A DNA stretch of 61,985 nucleotides, filler included, from Choristocarpus tenellus KU-1152 (Eukaryota > Protista > Phaeophyceae): assembly GCA_964200185.2 (NCBI GenBank). It is 14 parts of 14 records of this genome, joined end to end, with 100 filler letters (N's around TTAATTAATTAA, not from the genome) between each part and the next. Parts side by side here need not be neighbours in the genome. Positions count along the whole stretch, not along the records: positions 50,993 to 56,994 come from CAXNAD020009197.1; 13 more parts are not named here. The stretch is one strand, 5' to 3'. The notes below the pieces were generated by a model. It made no database searches. It saw only the letters and a list, made by a program, of their open reading frames with translations, and was not told the origin of the DNA. The translations under genes and the position numbers were made by a program. Each line of letters opens with the position of its first letter. Position 1 is the first letter of the stretch. Positions 4,530 through 57,133 of this stretch are shown here, piece by piece.

Positions 4530-5862
4530 GTATGTTTGGTTGCTCGTAGATGCAAGGTTGATGCTTTGACATTCCTGTTTGAATACATTTGGCGAACTCC
4601 ATTGTTGTGTGATTTGTGGCGTTACTCTTTAAATGTCAAATTTGATGTTCGATACAATAAGACATTTAGATGATATTGACTAGTCTGTGATAGTTGTGAC
4701 ATTATGTTTCTTTCGTGAATGATAATGGTGGGTTCTTGACGCATTTAGAACTCTCTAGTTTAACTTGATGTTGTGTATGTTGTGTAGTGTATAAAAGCAA
4801 AGATACTTATTTTGTGTACTGTTGAGATAGATATGTTTTGGTGTTCAGGACTAGTGGAGAGTAGATGAGTCCTGCAGGTTGGATGTGTACTTTTATTGTT
4901 GGTTAAATATTAAATGTTTCTGTAATCTATCAATGTATATTCTCACACAGGTAAAGTACATTGATATGAAGCGGTGTAGGTGATTTGCTGTGAATTATTA
5001 GTGATGTGCGTTGTTGTTGTTCACTTTGTATATGAATGTGTTAACCGTAACGCGAAGCTTACCACATATTCGTCAACTTTGTGGGTTTTTTACTTTGAGG
5101 ATGGAAATTTATAAATTGGATTCAGTAATGATATCAATATTAATATTGTTCTGGTGGTGCCATTAATGTGAAACGATTGTTCATTTTTTTGTTGGGTAGG
5201 TGTGCTCCCCACTTCTGGACAGCTTCGAGCACTTAGCAAGGTCTTGGTGGACGGTAAGGAGTATGTTTGATGGTGTTTGATCATCAGTATTTTAGGTTTG
5301 TGTTTCAAGGTATTCCCATTACCGAACGTTGAGTTGGATGAAATTTGTGTGGTGAAATGTTCAGAGGAGTATAACTACAGGAGGTGGGTTATATGTGTAG
5401 ATATTTTGCTTGTGTTGACTGGATTGTCAGAACTGAAGAGAGGTTTGTCTTGTTTTTTCCTCTCTGATCATAATGCTTCCTCTGGTGTTGAGGTATTGAG
5501 ATTATTGACTTTGCAGGTTCTGCTTATGCCACAACACTCTCAAAAACATAATACCTGTACCTAAAATAAAGTGTTGGACAGTTGCCTTTCTAAGTTTAGC
5601 ATGTGACGTGCAGATTGGGACTTAGACTTGATGAAGGGAAGGAGGGGTGAGAAATATCCAGTAACTATATCATCAAAGGACTTTGTGCCGAAGTCTCGAC
5701 CGGCAGGTTTGTTATTTTTACTTATTTAGTTTGACCATCCAACATTTGATGTTGATGTCATGATTAATATTCGTATGTGGTAGAATGTGACATGAAAAAA
5801 TATGATGGCAGTATTTAGTCATGCATGTGTTTAGTTCTCACATCATCGTTGTCCTTTGGCAG

Positions 5863-6722
5863 GTGTTACTGGGAAAATGGTGGCATGGAAACTAGGACCA
5901 TACTGTGAGACTTTGGGGTCTCCTGACTTTGAGCTGAAGGTTACTTCACTTAAGTCGATGTTTGATCCAGAGATGTTCACTTCAACTATGGACAGTATTC
6001 CGGCACTGATGACGATGTCATCAAGTACAGCTACTTTGGATGGGAAACGCTACTTGCTGCATCCCGCGGTGACCTGTTCAGCAAGAGAAGGTTTAGAATT
6101 TTCCTCACCCCTTCGACTGGGGTTTCCTGTTAGAGATGAGGAGAGAATAAACGTTGGACCAGATGATGAAAATCGTGTTGAGGGTAAGGAGGAAGCTTAC
6201 ATGAAGTACCTGGAGCAGGAATTTGGAGTGTGGGTACAGGAAGAGGGTGGTATGGAAGGGGTTTCTCTTGAGCCAGAAGTTGTGCAAGTGAAGAAGACCT
6301 TTTCTCTTGAAGCGTTGGTACCTTACTTCCCTAAATTCACTCTTGCGAGGCTAATCAATGAGGACAATAGTGTTAAAATTGTCGACATTGAGAAATTTGA
6401 TCATGAGAGCAGAACGTATGGGTTCCTTTTTGTCATCGATGGCCTTAAGAATGCATCTGGTGAGCCGCAGGACGTGACTGTCTTGTATAGGGATAGCTCT
6501 GTGTCGAGAGTCAGCGCAACTCATTGTGGGCTGTCCATCAGCCCCTTTGAAGGTGGTGCGGTAGATGTGGAAGCAAATTCTGGAGTTCCAGGAAATTGTG
6601 TGTTGAGCTATCAAGTCAAAGTTAGTGAAAGTGATCTGTGTATGTTAAGTGTTCCATGGACGATGGTTATATGGGTAACACAAAAGGAGCAAGAGGAAGG
6701 GCATCGAATAGTTCAGGATTGA
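5863..6722 (+). CDS. Terminal exon, ZU5-like domain followed by a beta-rich (UPA-like) region
   Basis: Open ~286 codons after a CAG acceptor. LLHPAVTCSAREGLEFSSPLRLGFP fits the ZU5 pattern LLSPvVxCgPxGxxFxxPVxLxxP. LVPYFPKFTLA sits where vxHFSxFxL lies. Confidence 0.65.
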
Positions 6723-14395: not shown

Positions 14396-15352
14396 TTTTG
14401 TGTTCAAGATTTATGTATTGATGTATGTGTGTATGTGTATGTGGGTCGTATGTGTTTGTCAGTGCAATTTGAAAGCGGTGTGGGAGAGAGAGAGAGGAAG
14501 AGGGGTGTTTGTACGTTGAGGATAGATGAGATGCGGAATGAGAAGAACATCATTGCATGCAGTGCAACCCTACTTCTATTTCAGTTCCGAGATGAAGACG
14601 CACCAACGGGGGTAGAGCAACACAAACAGGGGATGGTAAACACAAGAGTCAGAAGAGTGAAGTTGGGGGGAAAGGTCATTCATTGGAGGAACGGCCTCAC
14701 AATGACATGATTACACCATGAGTGTTACCGGTTTGCCATGCGAAGGCAGGTCCGTAGGTGTGGCGGCTGGTGGTCTCTCCGTGGTTTAGTGCGCTGACGA
14801 GCGTTTTGCTGCATCATCTCTTGTTGTTGATAGTGGAGTCAAACCGTCTGAGGGTTAGGGTTAGGGATGCCAATAACGTGTCAAAAATATGACGTTTTTT
14901 GGTACAATTTGCAGAAAGAGCCCTTTTTTTGCTGAGTTGCATTGTAACTGCGTGTGTAACTGTATGTGTAACTGTGTAAAAAAAAATGGGAACTATCAGT
15001 TGTGTCTACACACTAATTGTACACACTATTGTCAGTGGAATAAATAGATAAATAAATGGGGGTGTATTGCACAGGGTAAGAAGGACGGCATAGAGTGAAA
15101 TCATTGGTGGAGGAGGTTCGCACCGGTTGATCACAAGGGGTGTTACAATGGGGGGGCGGAGTAGAATGGGTGGAATGCAAACGTAGAATAGATCATAATA
15201 GTCCACAACAAGGGTCCAAACCTGCCTTGGCTCAGTGATCGTTTTGTTCCTCACTTGCCAAGCCAATTCTCACTACTACCAGATTCTTACTGCAACACGG
15301 CTGATCTGATCCATGTGTCTTGTGTGTGTTTGCTGTGCTGGGGCATGTACAG

Positions 15353-17775
<2,423 letters not shown>

Positions 17776-28068: not shown

Positions 28069-28313
28069 GAGTAAAAGTATCGTAGAGGGTACGAGTTTTG
28101 CCCTGTTTGTCCGTTTGGAGATTGACTTCCCACGGGTTCTTACGACATTTTCCTACTCCGAAACATTTAGGAGTAGGAAAAATGTATAGGTGTGTCCGGC
28201 ACAAGGATATTGACATTTCCTAACAAACATGATCGCAATATTAAGATCAAAATCGCAACATGGGACTTTGACCCCAAATGGACGCGGCTCTACCCTCTAA
28301 GATACTTTGAGTC
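28069..28313. mobile_element. MITE family A, TSD TACG
   Basis: TACG at 28065-28068 and 28314-28317. Confidence 0.92.
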
Positions 28314-29361
28314 TACGATTCTATAATGTTACAATCACCTGTTCATGCCTACTTACCATCTCTCCCCACCCTTTTTACACCCCAGTCATAACCTCTCACT
28401 TTCTGTATAAACTTCTACAATCGTTGCTATCTTTTCAAACTACTTGACTATCTCCTTGCCCATCCCTCTAGCCGTCACCCCCCTCACCTCTGAAGATGAT
28501 TTTCTTCAACTGCTTCGTTTTGGAACATCCCTGTACCCTGAGCAACCCACCCCAGTTGCGTTCACTACAACTGTCATCATTTTGTTCTTGGAGAAGTACT
28601 TCATCTACCTTCTCGATCAACCACCCTCTCTGTCAGTCAAAAATTGTCTTATTCTCTTGGTTGGGACTATGTTCAAGTACCCACAAATAAAGGACATCAT
28701 AGCACATACACCTCAAAAATCTCTTGGGACTGCAAAGATCCTCGTACACAAGGAAAAACATTCGTTTGGTCATGCCACCAAGGCACAATGTCAAAATTCC
28801 TATTTTCAATTCATCTTGCTAAGAGGGTGAGGAAAGAGAAACACGACAGGGAGGAGGAAAGACCAGTCAGTCAGCAAAACGAGCCAATTGGAATCAATAG
28901 GGAATAGGTCGGGGCGAGAAAAAGTTGGAGAGAGGGCTGATGGGGAGGAGGTAGAAGGTGAAGAAGTAGACTCACAGGGTACAGCAAAGGGTGATGAGTA
29001 CACACACATATACATACAATTGTGCCATAGGGCACTGCATCACCTGGGATAATTTTTTTCTCACCCTTCACGAAGATGAGATAGATCGGTGTAGTACAAT
29101 CCATGTTCTCCAAAACAAAATTACCGGCAAGCTATTTTTATTCGATTATGTAAGATAAGTGTCTAAATTGTGAACCAGCAGAGCGACAGGAACATGTAAT
29201 ACCAAGTTACATGGAATATAACACCCAATAATAGATCACCAATTCCTCGATTTAGGATTTTATCTATATAAATTATTTGAAGCATGTTGACAGCTAACCC
29301 CCAATTGTATGTATGTGTAGATTGTCATCACCCATTGGATTACAGCAATACTTGTATAATT

Positions 29362-29628
29362 GAGTCAAAGTATCTTAGAGGGTAGAGCTCCGTCCGTTTG
29401 GGGATCAAATCTAATGTTGCGATTATGATGCAATTTTTGCTATCGTGTTTGTTAGGAAGTGTCAATATCCTTGTTCCGGACATACACATGATACCTACTC
29501 CAAAATATATACTTTTTACCTACTTCGAAATATTTCGGAGTAGTAGGGAAATATCATAAAAACCCGTGGAAGCTAAGCCCAAAACGGACAAACAGGACAA
29601 ATTCGTACCCTCTAAGATACTTTCACTC
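29362..29628. mobile_element. MITE family A, TSD AATT
   Basis: AATT at 29358-29361 and 29629-29632. Confidence 0.92.
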
Positions 29629-29909
29629 AATTGTATGGGGGGGGGCATAGACGGATGGACACTAGTTACTGATGAGGTCAGCTTGTTCTCAGTCTGGAGT
29701 GGTGATAAAATATAGAAAGAGGTGTAATGCGACTTGAGGGCAAGATAAAGTGATATACACGGCCAATAATGTCACAGCAAGTCATACCCTATCAGCATGA
29801 ACACACGCATATATTACATTTAATAAAGGGGGGGGAAAGAAATTGCAATAAACACACATATGTTCATTGTGAAGGCGTTGTCTAGAAAGACAAGAAAAAA
29901 AATTCAAAA

Positions 29910-32149: not shown

Positions 32150-33260
32150 GGTGCGTCTAGTGGCAAATGTCTTCGTCGCATTGAGGGCTTAGATTACCAA
32201 GATACCTTACTCCCACACCATCGCCTGCTTCTTGGAATAATGGTTTTAACATTGACTTCAGACAGGGGATTGGGAGTTGAAGCATTAGGATGCGAAGCAG
32301 GCTTTCATCCAGGTAGATATGAAGAGGGCATACATGTTCCTTCACGGGATAGATGTAGTACATGGTCAGGGAGGATTGTCCGGATTACTGGAAGCAATCT
32401 ATGCAACCAACCAGGCTAGCAGAGAGTTTAGCAATTGTTTCAGAACAGATCCCTATGTGATATTCTATGCAGAAAATGGCGAAGTTTGTGCAGTAATAGC
32501 ACCCCGCGATGATGACCTTGTAGCTGCAGGATTGTATGATGTTTTGATTTGGTTTCGCACTGTAATTGAGGCGAAGTTTTCCAGGGAGGAACTTGGTCAT
32601 TTGTAGTATATTATGGGCTGTAGTGAAAGTATCTTAGGGGGTACGAGTTTTGCCCTGTTTGTCCCTTGGTGCTTGGCTCCTGATATATTTTTTTTATGAC
32701 ATTTTCCTACTCGGAAATGTTTTGGAGTAGGTAAAATGTATACTTTATGAAAAGGTGTGTGTGGAACAAGGACATCGATACTTCCTAACAAACACGATAG
32801 GTAAAATTACATCAAAATCACAACATTGGATTTTGACCCCCCAAATGGACAGCGCTCTACCCTCTAAGATACTTTGACTCTTGTGAGATTTAACGTGACA
32901 GAATTGCAAAGATGTTAGAACCAGTCAGATTGTGTACATTGAGAGCATTTGTGAGAGATTTGGTGTGGATGGGCCAAAGTATCTGGATGGGTGCGGAGGA
33001 GAAATGTCTCTTGATTATCAGAACATTGTGAATTTGTCTTTAACAGAAAGCGAGTACATAGCCCTATGTAGTGTGGCACACGAGATATTTGAGAAATGTG
33101 TTGGAGAATTTACGACCATAGTTCTCCAGGCGTTACACTGATATGTTAAAGGATAACGATGTTGCACGAAAGCTAGTGTGTAATGCTACCAGTTCATCTA
33201 AGAGATGAGTACATGATATCAGACACCTTTTCTTGAGAGATCTGAGAAGAAAAATTATGT
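32150..33260 (+). mobile_element. Ty1/copia RT-RNaseH relic
   Basis: GLDYQDT, LEAIYATNQASRE, DPY, DDDLVAAG, ELGHL*YIMG, YIESICERFG, LSLTESEYIAL, DIRHLFLRD; many stops and deletions. Confidence 0.85.
32621..32880. mobile_element. MITE family A inserted in copia relic
   Basis: Near-TSD CTGT/TTGT; interrupts MGC|EI. Confidence 0.9.
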
Positions 33261-33418
33261 TCGTGTTATTTTTTGTTATGCTGAAAACAGAGTGCAAATA
33301 TGTTGACAAAGAGTTTGCCTGTGGAAGGTTTTCAGACAACATGTGAGAATTTTGATTCACATGTAGCAGCATTGTGTGTGTGTTTATTCGTTCTTATTAG
33401 TTTTGATGTTGTGTTTAT

Positions 33419-33486
33419 GAGCCAAAGTATCTTAGAGGGTAGAGCCGCGTCCATTTGGGGGTCAAAATCCAATGTTGCAATTTGAT
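33419..33486. mobile_element. MITE family A, truncated by contig end
   Basis: GAGCCAAAGTATCTTAGAGGGTAGAGCCGCGTCCATTTGG. Confidence 0.88.
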
Positions 33487-33750
33487 NNNNNNNNNNNNNN
33501 NNNNNNNNNNNNNNNNNNNNNNNNNNNNNNTTAATTAATTAANNNNNNNNNNNNNNNNNNNNNNNNNNNNNNNNNNNNNNNNNNNNTCTGATATTCTATT
33601 GAGTTGACTTAGTGTTTAGTACAATTTAACTCTGCCTAGGGTGGATGGTGCATTCAGGTTACCCCAGTGAACCCCCACTCTTCTGAGCACTCATCCCACC
33701 CCACAATCCCTCTTCCCAACTTCTTGAATCCTCGCTTCCCTGGCTGAAAG

Positions 33751-34744
33751 ACGATGTGGTCAGTTCAAGCATAAGCATGAGTGCCCCTTCAAATCTTTGT
33801 CACAACTACGCAGCCAAGGGGTACAAGTTGACCCTATCCCAAGCCGGTGGGATCCCGCAGTCTCCATGAAAACCCCCCCCCGCTCCAACAGTAATGGAAG
33901 TATTGGCAGCGATGCCTACACTAGGCCAGGTTCAGCAGGGAGCTCCCCAACTCTGCATCCCCTTACCCCTCCACCACCAGGCGTTGCCATACCTGGGGAG
34001 AAAGTGCTGACTGTTCGCGATGGCCCCGGCCGTCCGCTGTTTGCTCGAGGTGGTGCAGGAACCCCTCCATGTTCGCCAGGCTCATCACGGGATGTTCCTG
34101 CTGACACCGGTGATAACGCCTTTTTTGGTGGGGTGAACGATCGTACTGTTTTTGCAAGACCATATCAAGCTGTGCTTGTACATGACCGGGAGCAGTTTGA
34201 GTCAGAAGAACAGGAACGCAATGTGAATGACCCTCAGGTGGAGCATTCGATGCAGGCGGTGGTGGCGACAGTGGACAGGATCTGGGATTCGCGTGAAAAT
34301 GAAGTTGTCCCATCCCCAGGTAGGACCATGGAGTCTTTTTCAGCGTTGAGAAATGGTCATGCTCCGAACAACAAGGGCATGCAGGTCTTGGCGCACATGC
34401 AGCCAGGGTTATCACAGATGGACTGCGAGACTGGAGGCATTTGGACCAGTCGGGAGGTGCAGATGGTACCACCCTCTGGGGTACTTTCTCCATCGCCACC
34501 TCCTGTGTCTCTTCCAGTTGGTGGTTACTCATCTACCCCTAACCCCTTGGGGTCACAGGAGGAGGATGAGCAATGGTCAATGGATAAGAACGGGCCCCAC
34601 CTTCATCACAGTGACACGGGAGAGGCACTGGATATGGAATTTCATGCACTGGCAAATGTTCTCCTGTGTGAGGATGATAACTACATGAATAGTCCTTTCA
34701 GGGAGGTGGACAACATGTTGGACTTCCCCCCCCTCACAGGATGA
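33751..34744 (+). CDS. Last exon of a CxxCGxxKxxHxC zinc-finger protein with a long disordered tail
   Basis: The 315-aa ORF extends upstream in frame to RCGQFKHKHECPFKSLSQLRSQGVQV after an AAG acceptor; first Cys presumably in an upstream exon; resembles stramenopile CCHC fingers. Confidence 0.7.
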
Positions 34745-41216: not shown

Positions 41217-42124
41217 TCAAAGCTCTATTCCTTCAAGGTACGCTCCAAGAATGCATTGGGCTGGGGGGAATTTGGACCACCCTCGTTCCCCTTGGTGCTC
41301 AACCCCCTTCCACCCTGCAAGTCACCTGAACTGCTTCAGCGGGGGGTGACTAGGCTAGTCATTGGTATGCTGCCCCCACCCGGATCAGGACTTGTGCTGG
41401 GTTTCGAGCTTCACATGTAAGTCGTGAAAGTAAGGGAGGAAACATAAGTGGGGAGGGGGAGCTACATCTAGCTGTGCTTGGCTAATACTTGAACCCACCA
41501 CCTCAGAAACCACCAACCCAATCCTACGATCAAGCCATCCCTCAACCGGGGGAAAGTACATTTTTGTTGTATATTGCCCCCACCCTCCCCCATGCTTCTT
41601 CTTGCATCCATGATCGGAACATTAATGTTGCCCTGTATCCATAGTGAGTGTGGTCTGTGCCATGAGCAATGCTACTAATAATTCATAGGGAAGAAAATCA
41701 TAGGCTGCGGCTGGCACAGCAGGTACACTGAAAGTGATTGTCTTTGCCACTGATTGACACCAGGTGCTCTTGATAAAATACAGCAACACCCCCCAACCAC
41801 TCCATCCTATCTTCCCCTTACTTCTTCTCCTGGAGGTGCACTGTTCTTCCAGGTACATCCCTGGGTGACGAGAACTGGGAAGTTGTTGGTGGGGTGGGAT
41901 CTGTCCTGAGAGCCAGAGGTGGTGCAATTGATATTAGTGGAGTTTGCACTGGAGCCAGCCCTGAGCCTGGGACTTGCAGCGAGAGAATATCTACTACTCA
42001 GCATGCACTTTGGGACCTACGACCAAGCACACCTTACCGTTTCAAAGTTCGGGCTAAGACTGTCTTTGGGTGGAGTCCAATGAGCAAGCCAAGCCAAGCA
42101 TTCTGTACAAAACGGCGATTTTGA
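41217..42124 (+). CDS. Fibronectin type III repeat protein, last exons
   Basis: Exons ~41217-41416 (YSFKVRSKNALGWGEFGPPS) and 41836-42124 (LRPSTPYRFKVRAKTVFGWSPMSKPS...*). Confidence 0.8.
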
Positions 42125-47261: not shown

Positions 47262-47502
47262 GAGCATAAGTATCTTAGGGTTAGGGTAGAGACACGTCTG
47301 TTTGGGGGCCAAGATCCAATGTTGCGATTTTGATTTAATTTTTGCTATTGTGTCCGCTAGGAAATGTCGATTTCGTAAGGTATACATTATACCCGCTCCT
47401 ACACATTTTGGAGTAGGTAAAATGTCATTAAAAACTCATGGGAAGTCAAGCCCCAAACGGATAAACAGGGCAATACTCGTACTCTCTAAGGCAGTTTCAC
47501 TC
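47262..47502. mobile_element. MITE family A, diverged
   Basis: Near-TSD TTAC/TCAC; both TIRs recognisable. Confidence 0.85.
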
Positions 47503-49870: not shown

Positions 49871-51041
49871 TTGTTTTTTCTATGTTCCTTCAGCCACACA
49901 TACATGTCTTCATCAGTCACTCCCTACAAGACAACAGGGAAACCCTATCAGTGAGAAAAGTAAGCAATAACATTGATGTGAGACTATACGCAATAAAGCT
50001 ACTGTTTGCAGGGATTGTGGCATGCATGGACAATGCTCATTCAAAAACATTGATGTTTGGGAAGCTTGCAGCTAAGAAAACGAAGATTATATCGACAAGG
50101 GGAGAAAAAGTAGTGGTGATCTCTTCAAGGTGACGTTGAGAGTTCAACTTTCCCAGGAAAAATGTGGTGTTTACTCCCAGATCCAAACCATTGATACTGG
50201 TGAGTGGAGAGTGGAGAATGGAGTCAGACGCTTCATGGACATCTACAATAGAATGCTAGGGATGCCGAGCCAGCCACAGATCATTGCATATAATAGTGCC
50301 CACAGTCATCTAGCACACATGATACTACCTGCGGAGCTTTGGGTTGGGTTCGGGGTCTGACCTTGGAAACCCTTCACAATAATATGTTACAGCACACTCC
50401 AGACCTCACCTCCACAGGATGTGCAACTCAAATCCAACAAACTTAAAACAACGATATGGGGGCGATACCTTTGATAACAGTTCTTGGGTGTCAGACAGCC
50501 TTCTCTCGATACTCCACTCAGTGCATAGCTCAAAGCTCGACTCAATATTTCGTTCAAGATAAAAGACTGTTAAAGAGGGGTGATGGATTGTGACCAAAAG
50601 CCCTTTTTATTATTTTCATCATCCACCTGTTTTCTTTAGACTTCTGTAGTTAAAGACCATCCGCAAACTGCTGTATACACAATCCAATCATAAACCTTCA
50701 TTCTGTAACTTCTAGGGACTGACTTTGACGTTTCTTCTGTAAGGTTACGTATGCATCACGAATCTTACTCTGCATCTTCTAAGGAATCAGCATTCGATCC
50801 AAAGTATCTGGGGGGGGGGGGGGGGGGGGGCGCCACTTAAAAAAAAGAAAAAAAAAAAAAGAGAGGGGGGGGGGGGTAGAGGGGTGTGTGCTNNNNNNNN
50901 NNNNNNNNNNNNNNNNNNNNNNNNNNNNNNNNNNNNTTAATTAATTAANNNNNNNNNNNNNNNNNNNNNNNNNNNNNNNNNNNNNNNNNNNNGGAAAATA
51001 TACCGGGTACAAGTAACACTGTGTACATACATCAAACCCAC

Positions 51042-51517
51042 CTCTCCACGCCGGTGGATGCTCTTGCGTTAGGTGTGCCTTTGCAAGCGTCGATGACATG
51101 ATTGGATATCCTGAACGATGCCTTGAAAAACTGCGTACAGACGGGAATGCCAGCCGCGAGCATAGATCCACCTCCAGGTCCCAACTTAATGACAGGTACA
51201 AGGTCGCCAACGAAGTGCTTGCGATCGCGGCGGTTCTCACACGCCCGGATGATGTCCTGCTCTTTGGCCAAGGTGCGTGCAAGGAAAGACTCGCCATCTG
51301 CCGCGAACTTCTTCACACAGGCTAAGCGCTTGCAGCAGTCACCCTGTTCGTTGACCGGGATGGGTTCAGCCCATCCTTGGTGAAGCTTGGTGCCGGTTGC
51401 TGAAGCGCCATTGGTAGGAAGCTCCAGCGCATCATTGTTGACAGGCTGGTGAGGGGGCAACACGGGGGGAGACGCAGGCGACAAAAGCCACCCCCTTGCT
51501 GTGGAAGCAACTGTCAT
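51042..51517 (-). CDS. Cys-rich exon, possibly N-terminus of a Sola-type transposase (rest off contig)
   Basis: 161-aa ORF with CCKRLACVKKF ... VCTQFFKASFRIS; plausible donor GAG|GTGGG; no DDE core visible. Confidence 0.35.
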
Positions 51518-51591
51518 GGTGTTTTCGGGCAGCAGGCGGTCTTGGGCAGTGAGAAGGTCTAGGAGTGATTATATTCGAAGGCGAGCATATG

Positions 51592-53030
51592 AACTTTGTT
51601 TGAGCCTCGGGCGATCGGTGGGACAATCCTGAGATCCATGATCCTGAAAATCCGTGCGTTACACTTTTTGGAAGTTGTAAATCCGATTATATCCGAGATT
51701 TCTATTGTAAAAAATCTGATTATATCCGTGATTTGTATTTTAAAAAATACAAATCACATATTTAATTGATATTGTACGTTTCCAACGTTCCGAAACCAAC
51801 TTTGTCTGAGCCTCTGGCGATCGGTGGGACCACCCTGAGATCCATGATCCTGAAAATCCGTGCGTTACACTTTTCGGAAGTTGTAAATCCGATTATATCC
51901 GTGATTTGTATTTTTTTAAATACAAAGCACATACTTAATTGATATTGTACGTTTCCAATGTTCCGAAATCAACTTTGTTTGAGCTCTGGGCTATCCACGG
52001 GACCACCCTGAGATCCATGATCCTGAAAATCCGTGTATTACGTTTTTAGGAAGTTGTAAATCCGATTATATCCGTACTTACAATTAAAAAAAAAAAATCG
52101 CATACTTCATTGATATTGTACCTTTCAAATGTTCCGAAACCAACTTTGTTTGAGCTCCGGGCGATCGGTGGGACTACCCTAAGATCCATGATCCTGAAAA
52201 TCCGTGCATTACGCTTTTCGGAAGTTATAAATCCGATTATATCCGACTTACAATTTTTTTAAATACAAAGCACATACTTCATTGATCTTGTATGTTTCCA
52301 ACGTTCTGAAACCAACTTTGTTTGAGCTCTGGGCTATCCGTGGGATCACCTTGAGATCCATGATCCTGAAAAACCGTGTATTACGTTTTTCGGAAGTTGT
52401 AAATCCGATTATATCCGTACTTACAAAATTTAAAAATACAAAGCACATACTTCATTGATCTTGTACGTTTCCAATGTTCAGAAACCAAAACTTAAAAAAA
52501 CAACTAGCACCCTCTAATTTTTTGAAGTACAAAATCTTACAAAATTGGACATTTGGATTCTTGTAAATTCTAGAGACGACAAAAAGGGGTTCTTTGAGTA
52601 AAACGGATCCGATCGGATTCCGTTTACCCTTGAACACCCAAAACACGTGCATTAGGATTTTTAGAAATAATAAATCCAGTAATAACCGTTCTTACAATTT
52701 TTGAAAATACAAAGCACGCTCTATATGGGTCTCACACGTTTCCAATTTTCAGAAACTAAAAGGTCACTTCCAACTGGTACCCACAATTTATTTAAATACT
52801 AAAACCGCTTTTTGGCGACTTTAGTATATTCTTAAAAATACTAGAGACGATAAAAAATCGGATCTATAGTTTTAAAGATCCGATCTGATCTCCTAAACCA
52901 TTCAAGAGCCAAAACACGTGCGTTAGGGTTTTTACGAAATAATAATGATATTCTAGTCTTTACATCAACAAATACAAATACAAACCACATCCTTCATTGA
53001 TCCATTACGTTTGAAACGTACGAAACGAAA
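51592..53030. repeat. Tandem array: five ~172-bp units then two diverged 271-bp units
   Basis: Marker motif GTTTCCAAyGTTChGAAAC (imperfect in some units) starts at 51778, 51951, 52122, 52294, 52467, 52738, 53009 (spacings 173, 171, 172, 173, 271, 271). Confidence 0.93.
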
Positions 53031-53672
53031 AGGTCACAAAAAAACAGCTACTCTCTGTCTCTTTTCAATACGAAATCGTATGTTGTTTGATATTCTTTTT
53101 TTTTTAACATAGTTCTCAACAGAAATACAAATATGAGTTTTGAGGACCGACCGACCAGATGAAATAAAGCAGCACCTCCCATACCTCAGTTCTCATTTCA
53201 ATTCATTCCCTTCTGTACATACCACGCGAACCTGTTATTTATCGATCCCCATCACACCCTCCCAATCTTCGCCATATCCAGCATTCCCTCAACAACAACC
53301 CACCCGCCCGCCGATGGCACTGCCCATGGATGGAGAACGTGGGACAGCAATCTGAAGTGCATGTCCTCGCTCCTAGAGCATCACTACCTCGGCACGTACC
53401 AGATAAAACTTGGCAACATCACATGCACGGAGATGGTGCGTCCCCTGAGCGAGCGTAGCCTTGCGCGCGTCAGCAAGTCTATACAGGAGAAAGGCTGGCT
53501 GGAGCAGTTTGCTCCATCTGTTGTAATCCAGCGAGACTGTTCAGGTAATGGGGACCAGCTCAATGCCGAAACTGCGCTTGCCATTCAACGACGTACACTG
53601 GACAGAAACCATAGAATAACGGTGCTGAAGAGAGAGAGTTTGATCCCGAACGTGCTTTCATGATGCGGATCT

Positions 53673-53931
53673 GAGTGAAACTATCTTAGAGGGTACGAGT
53701 TTTGCCCTATTTGTCAATTTGGGGCTTGGCTTCCCATGGGTTCTTTTATGACATTTTACTACTCCAAAATGTTTCGGAGTAGGTAAAATGTATACGTCCT
53801 GAAAAGGTGTGTCCGGAACATAGATATTGACACTTCCTAACAAACACAATAGCCAATATTACATCAAAATCGCAACATTGGATTTTGGGCCCCAAATGGA
53901 CGCGGCTCTACCCTCTAAGATAATTTAGCTC
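53673..53931. mobile_element. MITE family A in ParB-like exon, TSD ATCT
   Basis: ATCT at 53669-53672 and 53932-53935; removal restores FMMRIYMEFNQ. Confidence 0.93.
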
Positions 53932-53987
53932 ATCTACATGGAGTTCAACCAAGCAGAAGAGGGGCTAATTGCCAACGGTGGGTGATG

Positions 53988-54278
53988 GAGTGTTTTCGTT
54001 GTTCCATGATATCCTGATTATTCTGATCAACTAAGCAACAAAGTAAGTTGAGTGTTTTCGTTGTTCCATGATCGCCTGATTATTCTGATCAACTAAGCAA
54101 CAAAGTAGGTTGAGTGTTTTCATTGTTCCATGATCGCCTGAACATTCTGATCAACTAGGCAACAAAGTAAGTTGAGTGTTTTCGTTGTTCCATGATTGAC
54201 TGACTATTCTGATCAACTAAGAAACAAAGTATGTTGAGTGTTTTCGTTGTTCCATGATCACCTGATGACTATTCTGAT
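53988..54278. repeat. 62-bp intronic tandem repeat (~4.7 copies)
   Basis: Units start at 53988, 54050, 54112, 54174, 54236. Confidence 0.93.
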
Positions 54279-57094
54279 GTACGAAGTTGTTGCCGAGTTT
54301 CCTTTGCTTGGTTCGTCGTCAGTCAGCCCATTGTGGATCTTTTTGTTGTTCATCTTTCTTATCCCTCGTGGTCTCTCTGTCCAGAGCAACATGTTGCTCA
54401 GTACTGCATGCCGCATGTGTCCCGCGACCGCTCCCCACCTAACCCTTGTCCCATTCGTCCACTGCACCGCCACGCTTATAGCATTCAACGATGCGACCGA
54501 GAGTGTGGTTGACCGCACGCTATACGATAAGATATATTTTCAGCACGAGCTCAAAGAATCTATCAAGCGACAGACGAAGAAAAAATAAGTGTCACTAGTA
54601 GAGATCCGAAAAATGTACCAAAAGGTGAGGGAGTTGTCAACGTTGGTGGGATGGTTGCGCTCTACTCCTCCTCTAGTTGGGTTACAGATGTTGTGAAATC
54701 TCTCTGTGTCCTCCTATTCAATCTAAGTTGAGATAGTGTAGGAGCCCTGTCAACCAACCTATTGATTTTCGGGTGACCATGTAGTATGTATGTGTGGTTA
54801 ACCACAGACGTACAATAAAAAGCATCCTTGATTGTTTTATCGACGGTGTTGCCTGAAACCCCCCCCCACACACACACACAAATACATACCCCATTGGCGT
54901 GGTAATAACAATGCCTCATCCTCGCTGGCTGGGTGCATAATATTTTCCGTTTTCTGCCCATCGCGAAGGTGGGCGTTACTCCCCTGGCGAAAACAACTCT
55001 ACAAAACTGGCAGCAAGGCATAAAGTCCCTTCGACCAGAGTCCTTCGAGGTACTGAAGGAAGTGTGTGAGACCTCGTCACTACAGGTCGACCGCAACGCA
55101 GTCACACTGAACTATCTGAGTCACGAGGAGTTTGCCGGCTTCACTTCTCTCAAGCAGGGGCTATGCATCCATCTGCTTGCTAGGCAAGTCAAAACGCCAC
55201 TGTGTTTTATCGTGTAGACAGCAGTAAGCGCAATGTGTGCAGGTCGCAGCACATTGCACAGGAACGTTAAATAAGTTTCTCCTGCGATGAAGAATGTAGT
55301 CGGCCATTGTTGTGTCGAATGAAGAACCCTTCGTAGTATTGTGGTAATTCTACAACAGTGTGTGTTTCCTGTGTATGTGCGCTCTTGTCTTTTATGAACT
55401 ATGACAATCGATCCATGAACATTTGCTGCAGTGGTGACCCTTTCCTCATCATTACCTGCGCATCGTTCTCATTGACATCCTTCATGGCCATTCGCTTTTT
55501 GCAGGTACAAGTCGTTCTACGGAAAGGTTTCTACGGCAAGGGACTATAAGGACATCGAATCGGACGTGCACATGTCTGAGATGGTTTTCTTGCACACCAG
55601 GCAGATTGTGCCCAAGGAGAAGTGGACACCAGAGCTCCAAAGGTTGGTAATTGGTGCAGTTGCAGGGGTTATCTTTTTTTGCCTTTTCCGTATCTCCTGT
55701 GCGCCCATACGTCGCCATGCGCCCCTCAATTGTATAAAAATACTGTCGGCGTCTTTTTCGGCACCGCACTTATTGATTGTTGCAAAACTGCTCTAAATTC
55801 CGGACGTTACGTGAATGATGCATGGGTTGGCAGGGAAATGGACAGGCTTGCATATGAGAAGTGCAATATGCACGACCTCTGGGTCAAGCCCCACTACGAG
55901 GAGAGGAAGAGGGAGGTGGCCCAACTTCTGCAGAAGGTTTTATCTGGCGACCAGCAAGCGGGGCCTGTCCGGCAGCTGAGGGCAACATCTCTACGGTAGT
56001 CGGAATGAACCTCTGCAACGGGTCAGAGCCGTGAGTGTGCCTCCTGTGTTCGTAATTACAGCTGAAATGGCTTGTACCGAAAAAAATAGTTGATGCTTGG
56101 TAGGATTGGTGGTGGGTCTTTCTCATCATCATGAGTGACAGAGTTGCCTTCCCTACAACAAACGATGCTGTTTTGACAGTTCTAGACTTTCATTGCTAAT
56201 AGCGGGAATAGCCAATCATTTCCTTCAACTGTAGACAATGATCTTGGTCAATCTCCGCCTCGTTTCTGCTTCCAACACGTGTCACTGTCGTAACCTACAG
56301 ACAGGCTGGCGTCCTGGACATAGACTTCTTTCAAGCTATTTCACCCCGCAAGCTGCCTCCATTAAACACGTTCACCACGTCAACCGTATCGTTTGCTCTG
56401 TTCGATTGACATGCTATCGTACTTCCATTACACTCTCCCATTTTTGATGTCACCATCGTCCCCTCCTCTCCTCAACAACGTGCTCCGCCGTGTCCACCAC
56501 CAGATTCTCGAGAAGGACTCGACTCTATGCGCTTACCTCACCACCCGGGATGGGAAATACCAGGATGTCCTCAACCAGGTCAACCTCCATCGGGTTCACA
56601 GGGGGCGGGGCTGTGATGGTGGCGGCGCAGACGTTGAGAGTAACAATGGATCCGCATCAGATGGCCGTGAGAAAGAAGACGAGGGAGGGTGCGAACACAA
56701 AGGAGGGGATGGAGACGAGGGAGGGGACGAACACAAAGGAGCGGACGAAGACGAGGGAGGGAACGGACTGCCAGACAGGGAGGATACGGGCGAAGGGGGT
56801 TCTGTCGGCAGTGTTCCTGATGTGGAAGAAGAACAAAACGGCCATGGAGGGTGGAACGCGGGCGTTTGCTGTACTGAATGCAATCCTCCACCTCAGTCTC
56901 GGTGAGTAATGTAGTTGTAACGGTGCACATGGGGATGGCGGATAATTAATGGCGTAAGATTGGTTTCCATCCAATCCCCCGAACGGCTAACTAGNNNNNN
57001 NNNNNNNNNNNNNNNNNNNNNNNNNNNNNNNNNNNNNNTTAATTAATTAANNNNNNNNNNNNNNNNNNNNNNNNNNNNNNNNNNNNNNNNNNNN

Positions 57095-57133
57095 CAAATG
57101 GACGCGGCTCTACCCTCTAAGATACTTTGGCTC
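57095..57133. mobile_element. MITE family A terminus at contig start
   Basis: CAAATGGACGCGGCTCTACCCTCTAAGATACTTTGGCTC. Confidence 0.85.

Follow-up and report, generated by a model that had tools for sequence, protein, structure and literature searches.

A broken copy of a ParB-like gene in the brown alga Choristocarpus tenellus, probably a passenger of a large DNA transposon

Introduction

How does an intron-bearing gene of a brown alga come to encode the motif order of a bacterial ParB/Spo0J protein? The question is raised by a contig (positions 50993-56994) within a stretch of 61,985 nucleotides from Choristocarpus tenellus KU-1152 (assembly GCA_964200185.2), here called the window, which is a chain of short contigs joined with N spacers. 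According to an earlier note, made from the sequence alone, the gene occupies 53361..55183 and encodes a ParB-type domain followed by a helix-turn-helix (HTH). That note was right about the fold, but it did not recognise that this copy is a pseudogene, exists alongside many others and is probably cargo of a transposon, nor that there are published precedents. We consider it about 75% probable that this spliced brown-algal gene is a passenger of a large multi-copy DNA transposon, and that its intact product is a ParB-type protein likely binding its own element. ParB-like passengers on giant algal transposons were already reported in 2025, and this particular locus is dead; what makes it worthwhile is the family behind it, which comprises 194 clusters missed by PF02195-based surveys and combines a nearly invariant predicted nucleotide-binding patch with a retained DNA-binding domain.

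Structure of the gene and state of this copy

The exon map was obtained by tblastn of relatives against the window, the exact borders being read off the sequence. It comprises at least six exons, with GT-AG introns except for one GC donor.

50993..56994, no strand: whole contig with N spacers on both sides, likely from the interior of a large DNA transposon present in many copies, neither end being included
53361..53977, + strand: exon 1, predicted ParB-fold N-terminal domain, with a miniature inverted-repeat transposable element (MITE) inside; from matches to brown-algal proteins
53673..53931, no strand: the MITE, 259 bp, with GAG..CTC ends, terminal inverted repeats (TIRs) of about 24 bp and a 4-bp target duplication ATCT (53669-72 / 53932-35)
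53978..54481, + strand: intron 1, GT..AG, phase 1; many relatives of the open reading frame (ORF) type end at the same point, in GE/GK
54482..54624, + strand: exon 2, with the conserved Asn, the RTLYDK helix and the first HTH helix; from tblastn
54969..55183, + strand: exon 3, recognition-helix region (PxxTTLxNW) and ParB-type helical DNA-binding domain, with the GC donor; from tblastn and structure alignment
55505..55642, + strand: exon 4, helical domain; from tblastn
55834..56030, + strand: exon 5, helical/coiled region with two 1-nt frameshifts inside; from tblastn and run contigs
56504..56901, + strand: exon 6, end of the helical region, acidic Gly-rich linker and first CxxC of a PHD-like finger; from tblastn

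The motifs stand where the earlier note had placed them: RPLSE...SIQEKGWL and LDRNHR are in frame from 53361, with AGA at 53604-06, LIAN|AFND spans the phase-1 GT..AG intron (53978-54481), and DRTLYDKI lies in exon 2. The span given at that time holds these motifs but leaves out three further exons reaching to 56901 and the part beyond the contig. Exon 6 is followed by a GTGAGT donor at 56902, at the 3' side of the contig, and the gene therefore continues past the contig end. Since exon 1 matches five proteins, the three named ones being from Choristocarpus (76% identity), Ectocarpus and Undaria (best E 5e-35), and the family profile matches this ORF alone among 1636 six-frame ORFs of the window, the motif order is not a product of chance. 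The start of the gene is ambiguous, because an upstream ATG frame at 53317-53360 (MALPMDGERGTA), which resembles the N-termini of the relatives P0002 and P0003, is out of frame with MSSLL, and the upstream ATG frame of P0001 shows an identical offset. A 62-bp tandem repeat (4.5 copies, 53988-54266) directly follows the intron 1 donor and contains a donor-like GTAAGT in every unit. No Rfam match was obtained.

The locus is a broken copy (pseudogene) with six lesions. A G>A change at 53604 turns DGNHR into DRNHR, replacing the motif's G with R, two extra nucleotides in a GA run at about 53629 shift the frame, an in-frame TAA (54586-54588) stands just ahead of the HTH, and 1-nt losses near 55983 and 56007 shift the frame of exon 5, the sixth lesion being the insertion of the MITE into exon 1 (53673-53931). 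The MITE and one frameshift had been listed before as defects and are both real, but the stop codon and the two 1-nt frameshifts had been overlooked; the stop is called a lesion on the basis of P0001, which has a sense codon at this position.

The state of sister copies was read from contigs of four public runs (X1-X4, all from one study) placed on the window contig. As the earlier note had suspected from AGA versus GGA, DRNHR is one base away from the family's DGNHR: the sister copies carry G at 53604 in all four runs, at 97-100% of depth (8597/8900 in X1, 17382/17937 in X2, 2612/2630 in X3 and 32.4/32.4 in X4). They also carry an extra A at 55983 and at 56007, the two extra nucleotides at about 53629 are absent in 45-79% of depth across runs (X1: 4117/8038), and the MITE-empty joint 53668-53932 was found in one X2 contig. 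Intron 4 is exactly skipped (joint 55640-55832, GT..AG) in two contigs of X3. No other run has contigs lacking intron 4 or contigs joined to the exon 6 acceptor (55985-56504), and the intron cover of X3 is relatively depleted; X3 may be an RNA run, and the spliced joint is not counted as proof of expression.

Predicted fold of the encoded protein

The search against PF02195 that had been proposed gave no hit in 6, 5, 87 and 6 proteins, and NCBIfam, including TIGR00180, gave none either. Sub-threshold matches to GmrSD_N, DUF1015, DUF6551 or KorB occur in 8 of 87 proteins, accompanied by weak sub-threshold matches to DGQHR, and PHROG 498 (phage ParB/methyltransferase) and the ParB PHROGs match weakly (E 0.01-0.09). 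PDB sequence searches with exon 1, A2, A3, A5, P0156, P0174 and P0116 returned no ParB or methyltransferase match; a phycocyanin match at E 0.008 was judged to be chance.

Structure prediction followed by Foldseek, the second proposed check, gave ParB, Noc and KorB matches for the relative P0025 from Cladosiphon, whose model (119 sequences) reaches block pLDDT (predicted local distance difference test) values of 85-98 over residues 31-420. Foldseek returned 14 PDB matches at E<=0.001 over about 230-280 columns, and those listed are all ParB, Noc, KorB or pNOB8 ParB. The top 8 rows of an independent VIA search over 48,161 chains all have the ParB/Srx fold, with Z values of 9.8 for PadC, 9.5 for KorB and 9.0 for pNOB8 ParB over 216 residues, and SerK, SbnI and Srx also stand among these rows. 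In VIA-align, ParB and Noc reach Z 10.2-10.8 with a root-mean-square deviation (rmsd) of 2.1-2.7 over 91-97 residues, compared to Z 7.1-8.6 for sulfiredoxins. Past the N-terminal domain, Noc, KorB, pNOB8 ParB, Caulobacter ParB and Spo0J still align with the model, as far as residues 297-344. Viral structure matches, where named, are mostly ParB-annotated phage proteins, and a homodimer prediction run without alignment scored 0.28 versus a mark of 0.32.

The family is predicted to have a ParB N-terminal fold and then an HTH-type helical domain, as had been claimed from the motifs, and the P0025 structure matches running into the DNA-binding helices support this. Sulfiredoxin, which is a small stand-alone domain with its catalytic Cys in GCHR, had been excluded in the note; N or A in place of this Cys, the multidomain nature of the protein and the lower Z values agree with that exclusion.

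In the same passenger, the fold might have an enzymatic role or simply sense nucleotides, by analogy with DndB, SerK/SbnI or phage ParB-methyltransferase fusions, instead of forming a sliding clamp. Partition ParBs carry a GERR motif where the family has DGxHR, and the sub-threshold matches to DGQHR, GmrSD_N, DUF1015 and PHROG 498, together with SerK, SbnI and Srx in the VIA rows, would suit such a function, as would the finding that ligand specificity is unpredictable from sequence (accessible text of bioRxiv 2025.10.10.680097). However, the best Z and E-values belong to the HTH-bearing clamps Noc, ParB and KorB, and the helical DNA-binding domain is retained, while enzyme-type members are described without one in the same text; an enzyme or sensor, the main rival to the clamp, is considered unlikely, if worth weighing.

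Copy number and probable transposon context

The reading as a transposon passenger rests in part on the way in which the locus is repeated. In each of the four runs, many divergent contigs cover every one of the 30 bins of the contig, introns and spacer included, and the whole 6-kb contig is present as many copies with 85-95% identity, intron and spacer sites being variable in 20-40 contigs. For a MITE-free exon stretch of 193 bp, X1 alone holds 260 contigs, of which 16 are at least 99% identical, 62 fall at 95-99, 125 at 90-95 and 57 below 90, so that 182 lie below 95%. Since the copies diverge across introns and spacer, the unit is repeated as genomic DNA, introns included. Pylaiella gene models are represented by 6 and 6 near-identical copies, often partial. 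Upstream of the gene lie two further features of the presumed element.

51042..51517, - strand: first exon of a divergent gene, Cys-rich with C..C / VC..F....F.IS...I, followed by a GTGGGT donor; it runs off the contig and is multi-copy
51633..53080, no strand: tandem array between the two divergent genes, with five units of 171-251 bp (period 173, 86% match) and two decayed ones

The repeat call for the array is 4.5 copies of 173 bp with 86% match, corresponding to seven units with the decayed ones, and units 1-2 hold a 30-bp palindrome. The VC..F....F.IS...I pattern is reminiscent of Sola1-type transposase N-termini; the divergent exon is tentatively taken as such an N-terminus, no search having named it a transposase. 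The atlas links it to hypothetical proteins of arthropods and oomycetes at 0.93, with a low recognition score. Among the transposon superfamilies, Sola1 is slightly favoured as the carrier.

The MITE within exon 1 belongs to a very abundant family, with hundreds of distinct flanks in the public runs and 12 more copies or pieces in the window (76-95% identity, several at contig ends).

10672-10929, 14095-14221, 14325-14395, 16022-16276, 22391-22660, 24657-24828: further MITE copies or pieces
28069-28308, 29361-29629, 32622-32875, 33417-33483, 47262-47502, 57095-57133: further MITE copies or pieces

Eight near-complete copies were examined, seven of them with readable flanks, and four of these seven show a 4-bp duplication. 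Such duplications would fit a Sola-type mobiliser, the target duplication of Sola being 4 bp according to the accessible text of PMC10741241.

One Ectocarpus gene model, P0116, has its ParB-like first exon preceded by a stretch with a visual resemblance to hAT transposases; profile and PDB sequence searches gave no support for the hAT-like reading of this N-terminal part, which, if true, would suggest that the gene is carried by transposons of at least two superfamilies.

An enlarged family of host genes, either domesticated or segmentally duplicated, is an improbable substitute for cargo. It could account for six or more spliceosomal exons, for an ancient family represented by several lineages in each species and for a contig in which no transposon ends are seen, but not as readily for many decayed partial copies, a nested MITE and divergence spread over introns and spacer; moreover, giant DNA transposons whose accessory genes are spliced and which contain nested insertions that are fixed are described from brown algae in the accessible text of PMC12477816.

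Other contigs of the window hold host exons, encoding a GMC oxidoreductase C-terminal domain (15305-15646, + strand) and a fibronectin type III domain (41777-42121, + strand), as well as long open frames of 295 amino acids (5835-6719, + strand) and 338 amino acids (33728-34741, + strand) with no Pfam match.

Distribution of the family

A profile of six close sequences, run against 1.84 billion representatives, recovered 194 clusters (50% identity) at E<=0.001, and 150 of these clusters are listed. In three sets of clusters looked up, 10/10, 1/10 and 4/4 could be named, and every named one is from a brown alga (Cladosiphon, Ectocarpus, Pylaiella, Sphacelaria, Scytosiphon and Choristocarpus); no red-algal relative is among those named. 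Conservation was counted over 176 stored proteins, near-duplicates included: the motif DGxHR has D in 112/116, G in 113/114, H in 109/114 and R in 106/114, the residue before H being N in 99/114 and A in 11/114, while the upstream R is kept in 102/111 and the box-III-like N after the first intron in 32/43. In a tree of 16 rows, this copy groups with two Choristocarpus proteins and one from Sphacelaria (support 91/92), followed by Undaria P0005 and Ectocarpus P0004 (84/88); the remainder is unsure, with long branches, and several species hold several deep lineages of the family.

No relative was confirmed in viral (including IMG/VR), metagenome or prokaryote genome contigs, in scans sensitive to close relatives only, and tblastn against phages and plasmids gave only matches at E>=0.1, including a ParB-like phage gene at E 8. 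Origin from an endogenous giant virus of the phaeovirus type appears very improbable in the light of the four scans of pattern hits in IMG/VR contigs, with their limit to close relatives, the many introns and the lack of viral genes among the 99 window ORFs scanned, even though phage and giant-virus ParB-fold proteins are among the structural matches. Bacterial or phage contamination, or a chance order of motifs, has nothing but the bacterial-type fold in its favour and is practically untenable, being refuted by the protein matches of exon 1, the exon map of brown-algal type and the sister copies in the runs, while GT-AG introns matching brown-algal gene models (the argument already made in the note), exclusively brown-algal named relatives and the lack of a relative in prokaryote genomes or metagenome contigs, where close ones only are detectable, point in the same direction.

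Domains probably encoded beyond the contig

The missing part of the gene can be judged from its relatives. The longest, P0174 from Pylaiella (1100 amino acids), consists of the ParB domain, the helical domain, a PHD-like finger, a K/G-rich linker and a C-terminal domain. The finger follows a C4HC3 PHD-like pattern in P0174; its strict form is found in one of five proteins, the others being partial or looser. A profile of the P0174-type C-terminal domain (three relatives aligned) matches an alignment of 11 beta-class N4/N6 methyltransferases from bacteria along 60 columns that surround motif I, with an hhalign probability of 75% and a score of 42.1, compared to a maximum of 20.9 for 100 block shuffles; against yhdJ alone the probability is 2.9%. 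The methyltransferase-like domain is present in P0174, P0025 (where this region of the model has low confidence), P0157 and P0004, the last of which belongs to the same subfamily as the window copy and contains the first third of the domain (E 5e-13).

Neither of the catalytic motifs DPPY and DPFxGSG is present in any of the three full relatives, and the fourth, which is partial, likewise lacks motif IV; the PF01555 signatures (D/N/S)PP(Y/F) and FxGxG do not occur: the motif IV region reads ISPG, NVGA, CLNR and SIGA, the motif I region LSADKDG, FGAEHNT and FTAESDG. Exons for this domain were not found in the window and lie past the contig. The downstream part of an intact gene probably encodes a PHD-like finger together with a methyltransferase-like domain that lacks the catalytic motifs, and methyltransferase activity appears to have been lost.

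Assessment, possible mechanism and significance

Several observations weigh against the passenger reading or parts of it. The divergent ORF has no Pfam, NCBIfam or PHROG match, no longer-protein homolog and no exact-record match, the palindromes exceed all 60 shuffles in only two of the seven array units, and element ends, TIRs or a target duplication were not found within the contig. The first model, of a close relative and from six sequences, had a pLDDT of 49, and structure searches with it gave generic helical bundles and no ParB; the confident model is that of Cladosiphon P0025, whose identity to this copy is just 28% (249 columns, E 4e-17), and its two-domain rigid fits have an rmsd of 5-11 A. 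No methyltransferase emerged from HMMER, PDB or fold searches, the assignment having moderate support from one 60-column profile match and the motif order. Finally, 17 of 28 purified ParB-fold proteins bound no nucleoside triphosphate (NTP), as stated in the accessible part of bioRxiv 2025.10.10.680097.

The likeliest mechanism can be sketched in steps which, taken jointly, fall a little short of even odds. The protein would load via its predicted HTH on the tandem repeats beside its own promoter, nucleotide binding at the GxxR patch would close it, and it would then spread as ParB, KorB and Noc do. The clamp would thereby carry the finger and the pseudo-methyltransferase over the element, which might be shielded from silencing, or the divergent transposase-like gene might be regulated.

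It is doubtful at present that the transposons of brown algae bear an old and large family of genuine ParB sliding clamps, gated by nucleotides and working in a eukaryotic nucleus. If true, it would amount to an anti-silencing or transposase-loading system of parS/ParB type on chromatin, in which clamps loaded on element-specific repeats distribute a catalytically dead methyltransferase and a PHD-like histone reader along the element, the former acting as a reader or scaffold and not as the proposed writer. P0174, P0025 and P0001, together with the candidate binding arrays, provide material for asking whether a ParB clamp works in eukaryotes, and bear on how brown-algal transposons protect themselves. 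No account of the breadth of the family, of an intact nucleotide-binding patch with HTH or of the loss of methyltransferase motifs was found in the literature covered, in which subscription journals are thinly represented and supplements may bear on the matter.

Comparison with known systems

The CTP (cytidine triphosphate)-dependent bacterial clamps ParB/Spo0J, Noc and KorB share with the family the N-terminal fold, the GxxR arginine and the helical DNA-binding domain after it. In contrast, the family is only 9-18% identical to them, reads DGxHR, carries about 25 additional residues ahead of the motif strand, matches neither PF02195 nor TIGR00180, and has introns and long C-terminal additions; no parA-like ORF was found in the contig. 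GxxR-dependent NTP binding was seen in 11 of 28 ParB-fold proteins, as judged from the accessible text of bioRxiv 2025.10.10.680097, whose survey is built on PF02195/TIGR00180; lacking such matches, the family escapes it.

The same text reports an enrichment of ParB-methyltransferase fusions in phages. Phage and prophage ParB-N6N4-methyltransferase fusions resemble the family in domain order and in the weak PHROG 498 match, whereas the family lacks DPPY and DPFxGSG and has an extra finger and C-terminal domain; a fusion of this phage type is a plausible ancestor. ParB-HTH-methylase fusions are also noted in chlorophytes (accessible text of PMC4738411). A functional analogy exists with the anti-silencing VANC proteins of VANDAL transposons, which are transposon accessory proteins whose targets form tandem repeats within the element (PMC5735166, in part), binding being putative in the case reported here and homology not expected.

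Closer parallels come from algae. Red-algal Plavaka, Mutator and Zisupton transposons carry the ParB-like PAG3 beside tandem inverted repeats, and self-binding has been proposed (bioRxiv 2025.02.11.637652, in part). PAG3 likewise has a ParB-like N-terminal domain on a giant DNA transposon adjoining tandem repeats, and its best structural match is M. xanthus ParB (7BNR), the same entry as for this family; unlike the latter, it is fused to a 2-oxoglutarate (2OG) oxygenase, with the methylase encoded by a gene of its own, PAG2.

The nearest counterpart is Sola1-1_Ec32 of Ectocarpus, which has a gene for a ParB-like and N4C/N6A methyltransferase protein of 1104 amino acids on the strand opposite the transposase (accessible text of PMC12477816). 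Both come from a brown alga, lie opposite a second gene and combine ParB and methyltransferase-like parts, at 1104 versus 1100 amino acids for P0174; the window copy differs in belonging to another subfamily than P0174 and in being a pseudogene. The accessible description makes no mention of a PHD-like finger, of catalytic motif loss or of the breadth of the family. The published expectation is that the fused methyltransferase domain writes N4-methylcytosine or N6-methyladenine (4mC/6mA), which the loss of the catalytic motifs calls into question. As judged from host, length, domain order and orientation, compared by description only, the family appears to be identical in kind to this Sola1-1_Ec32 accessory protein.

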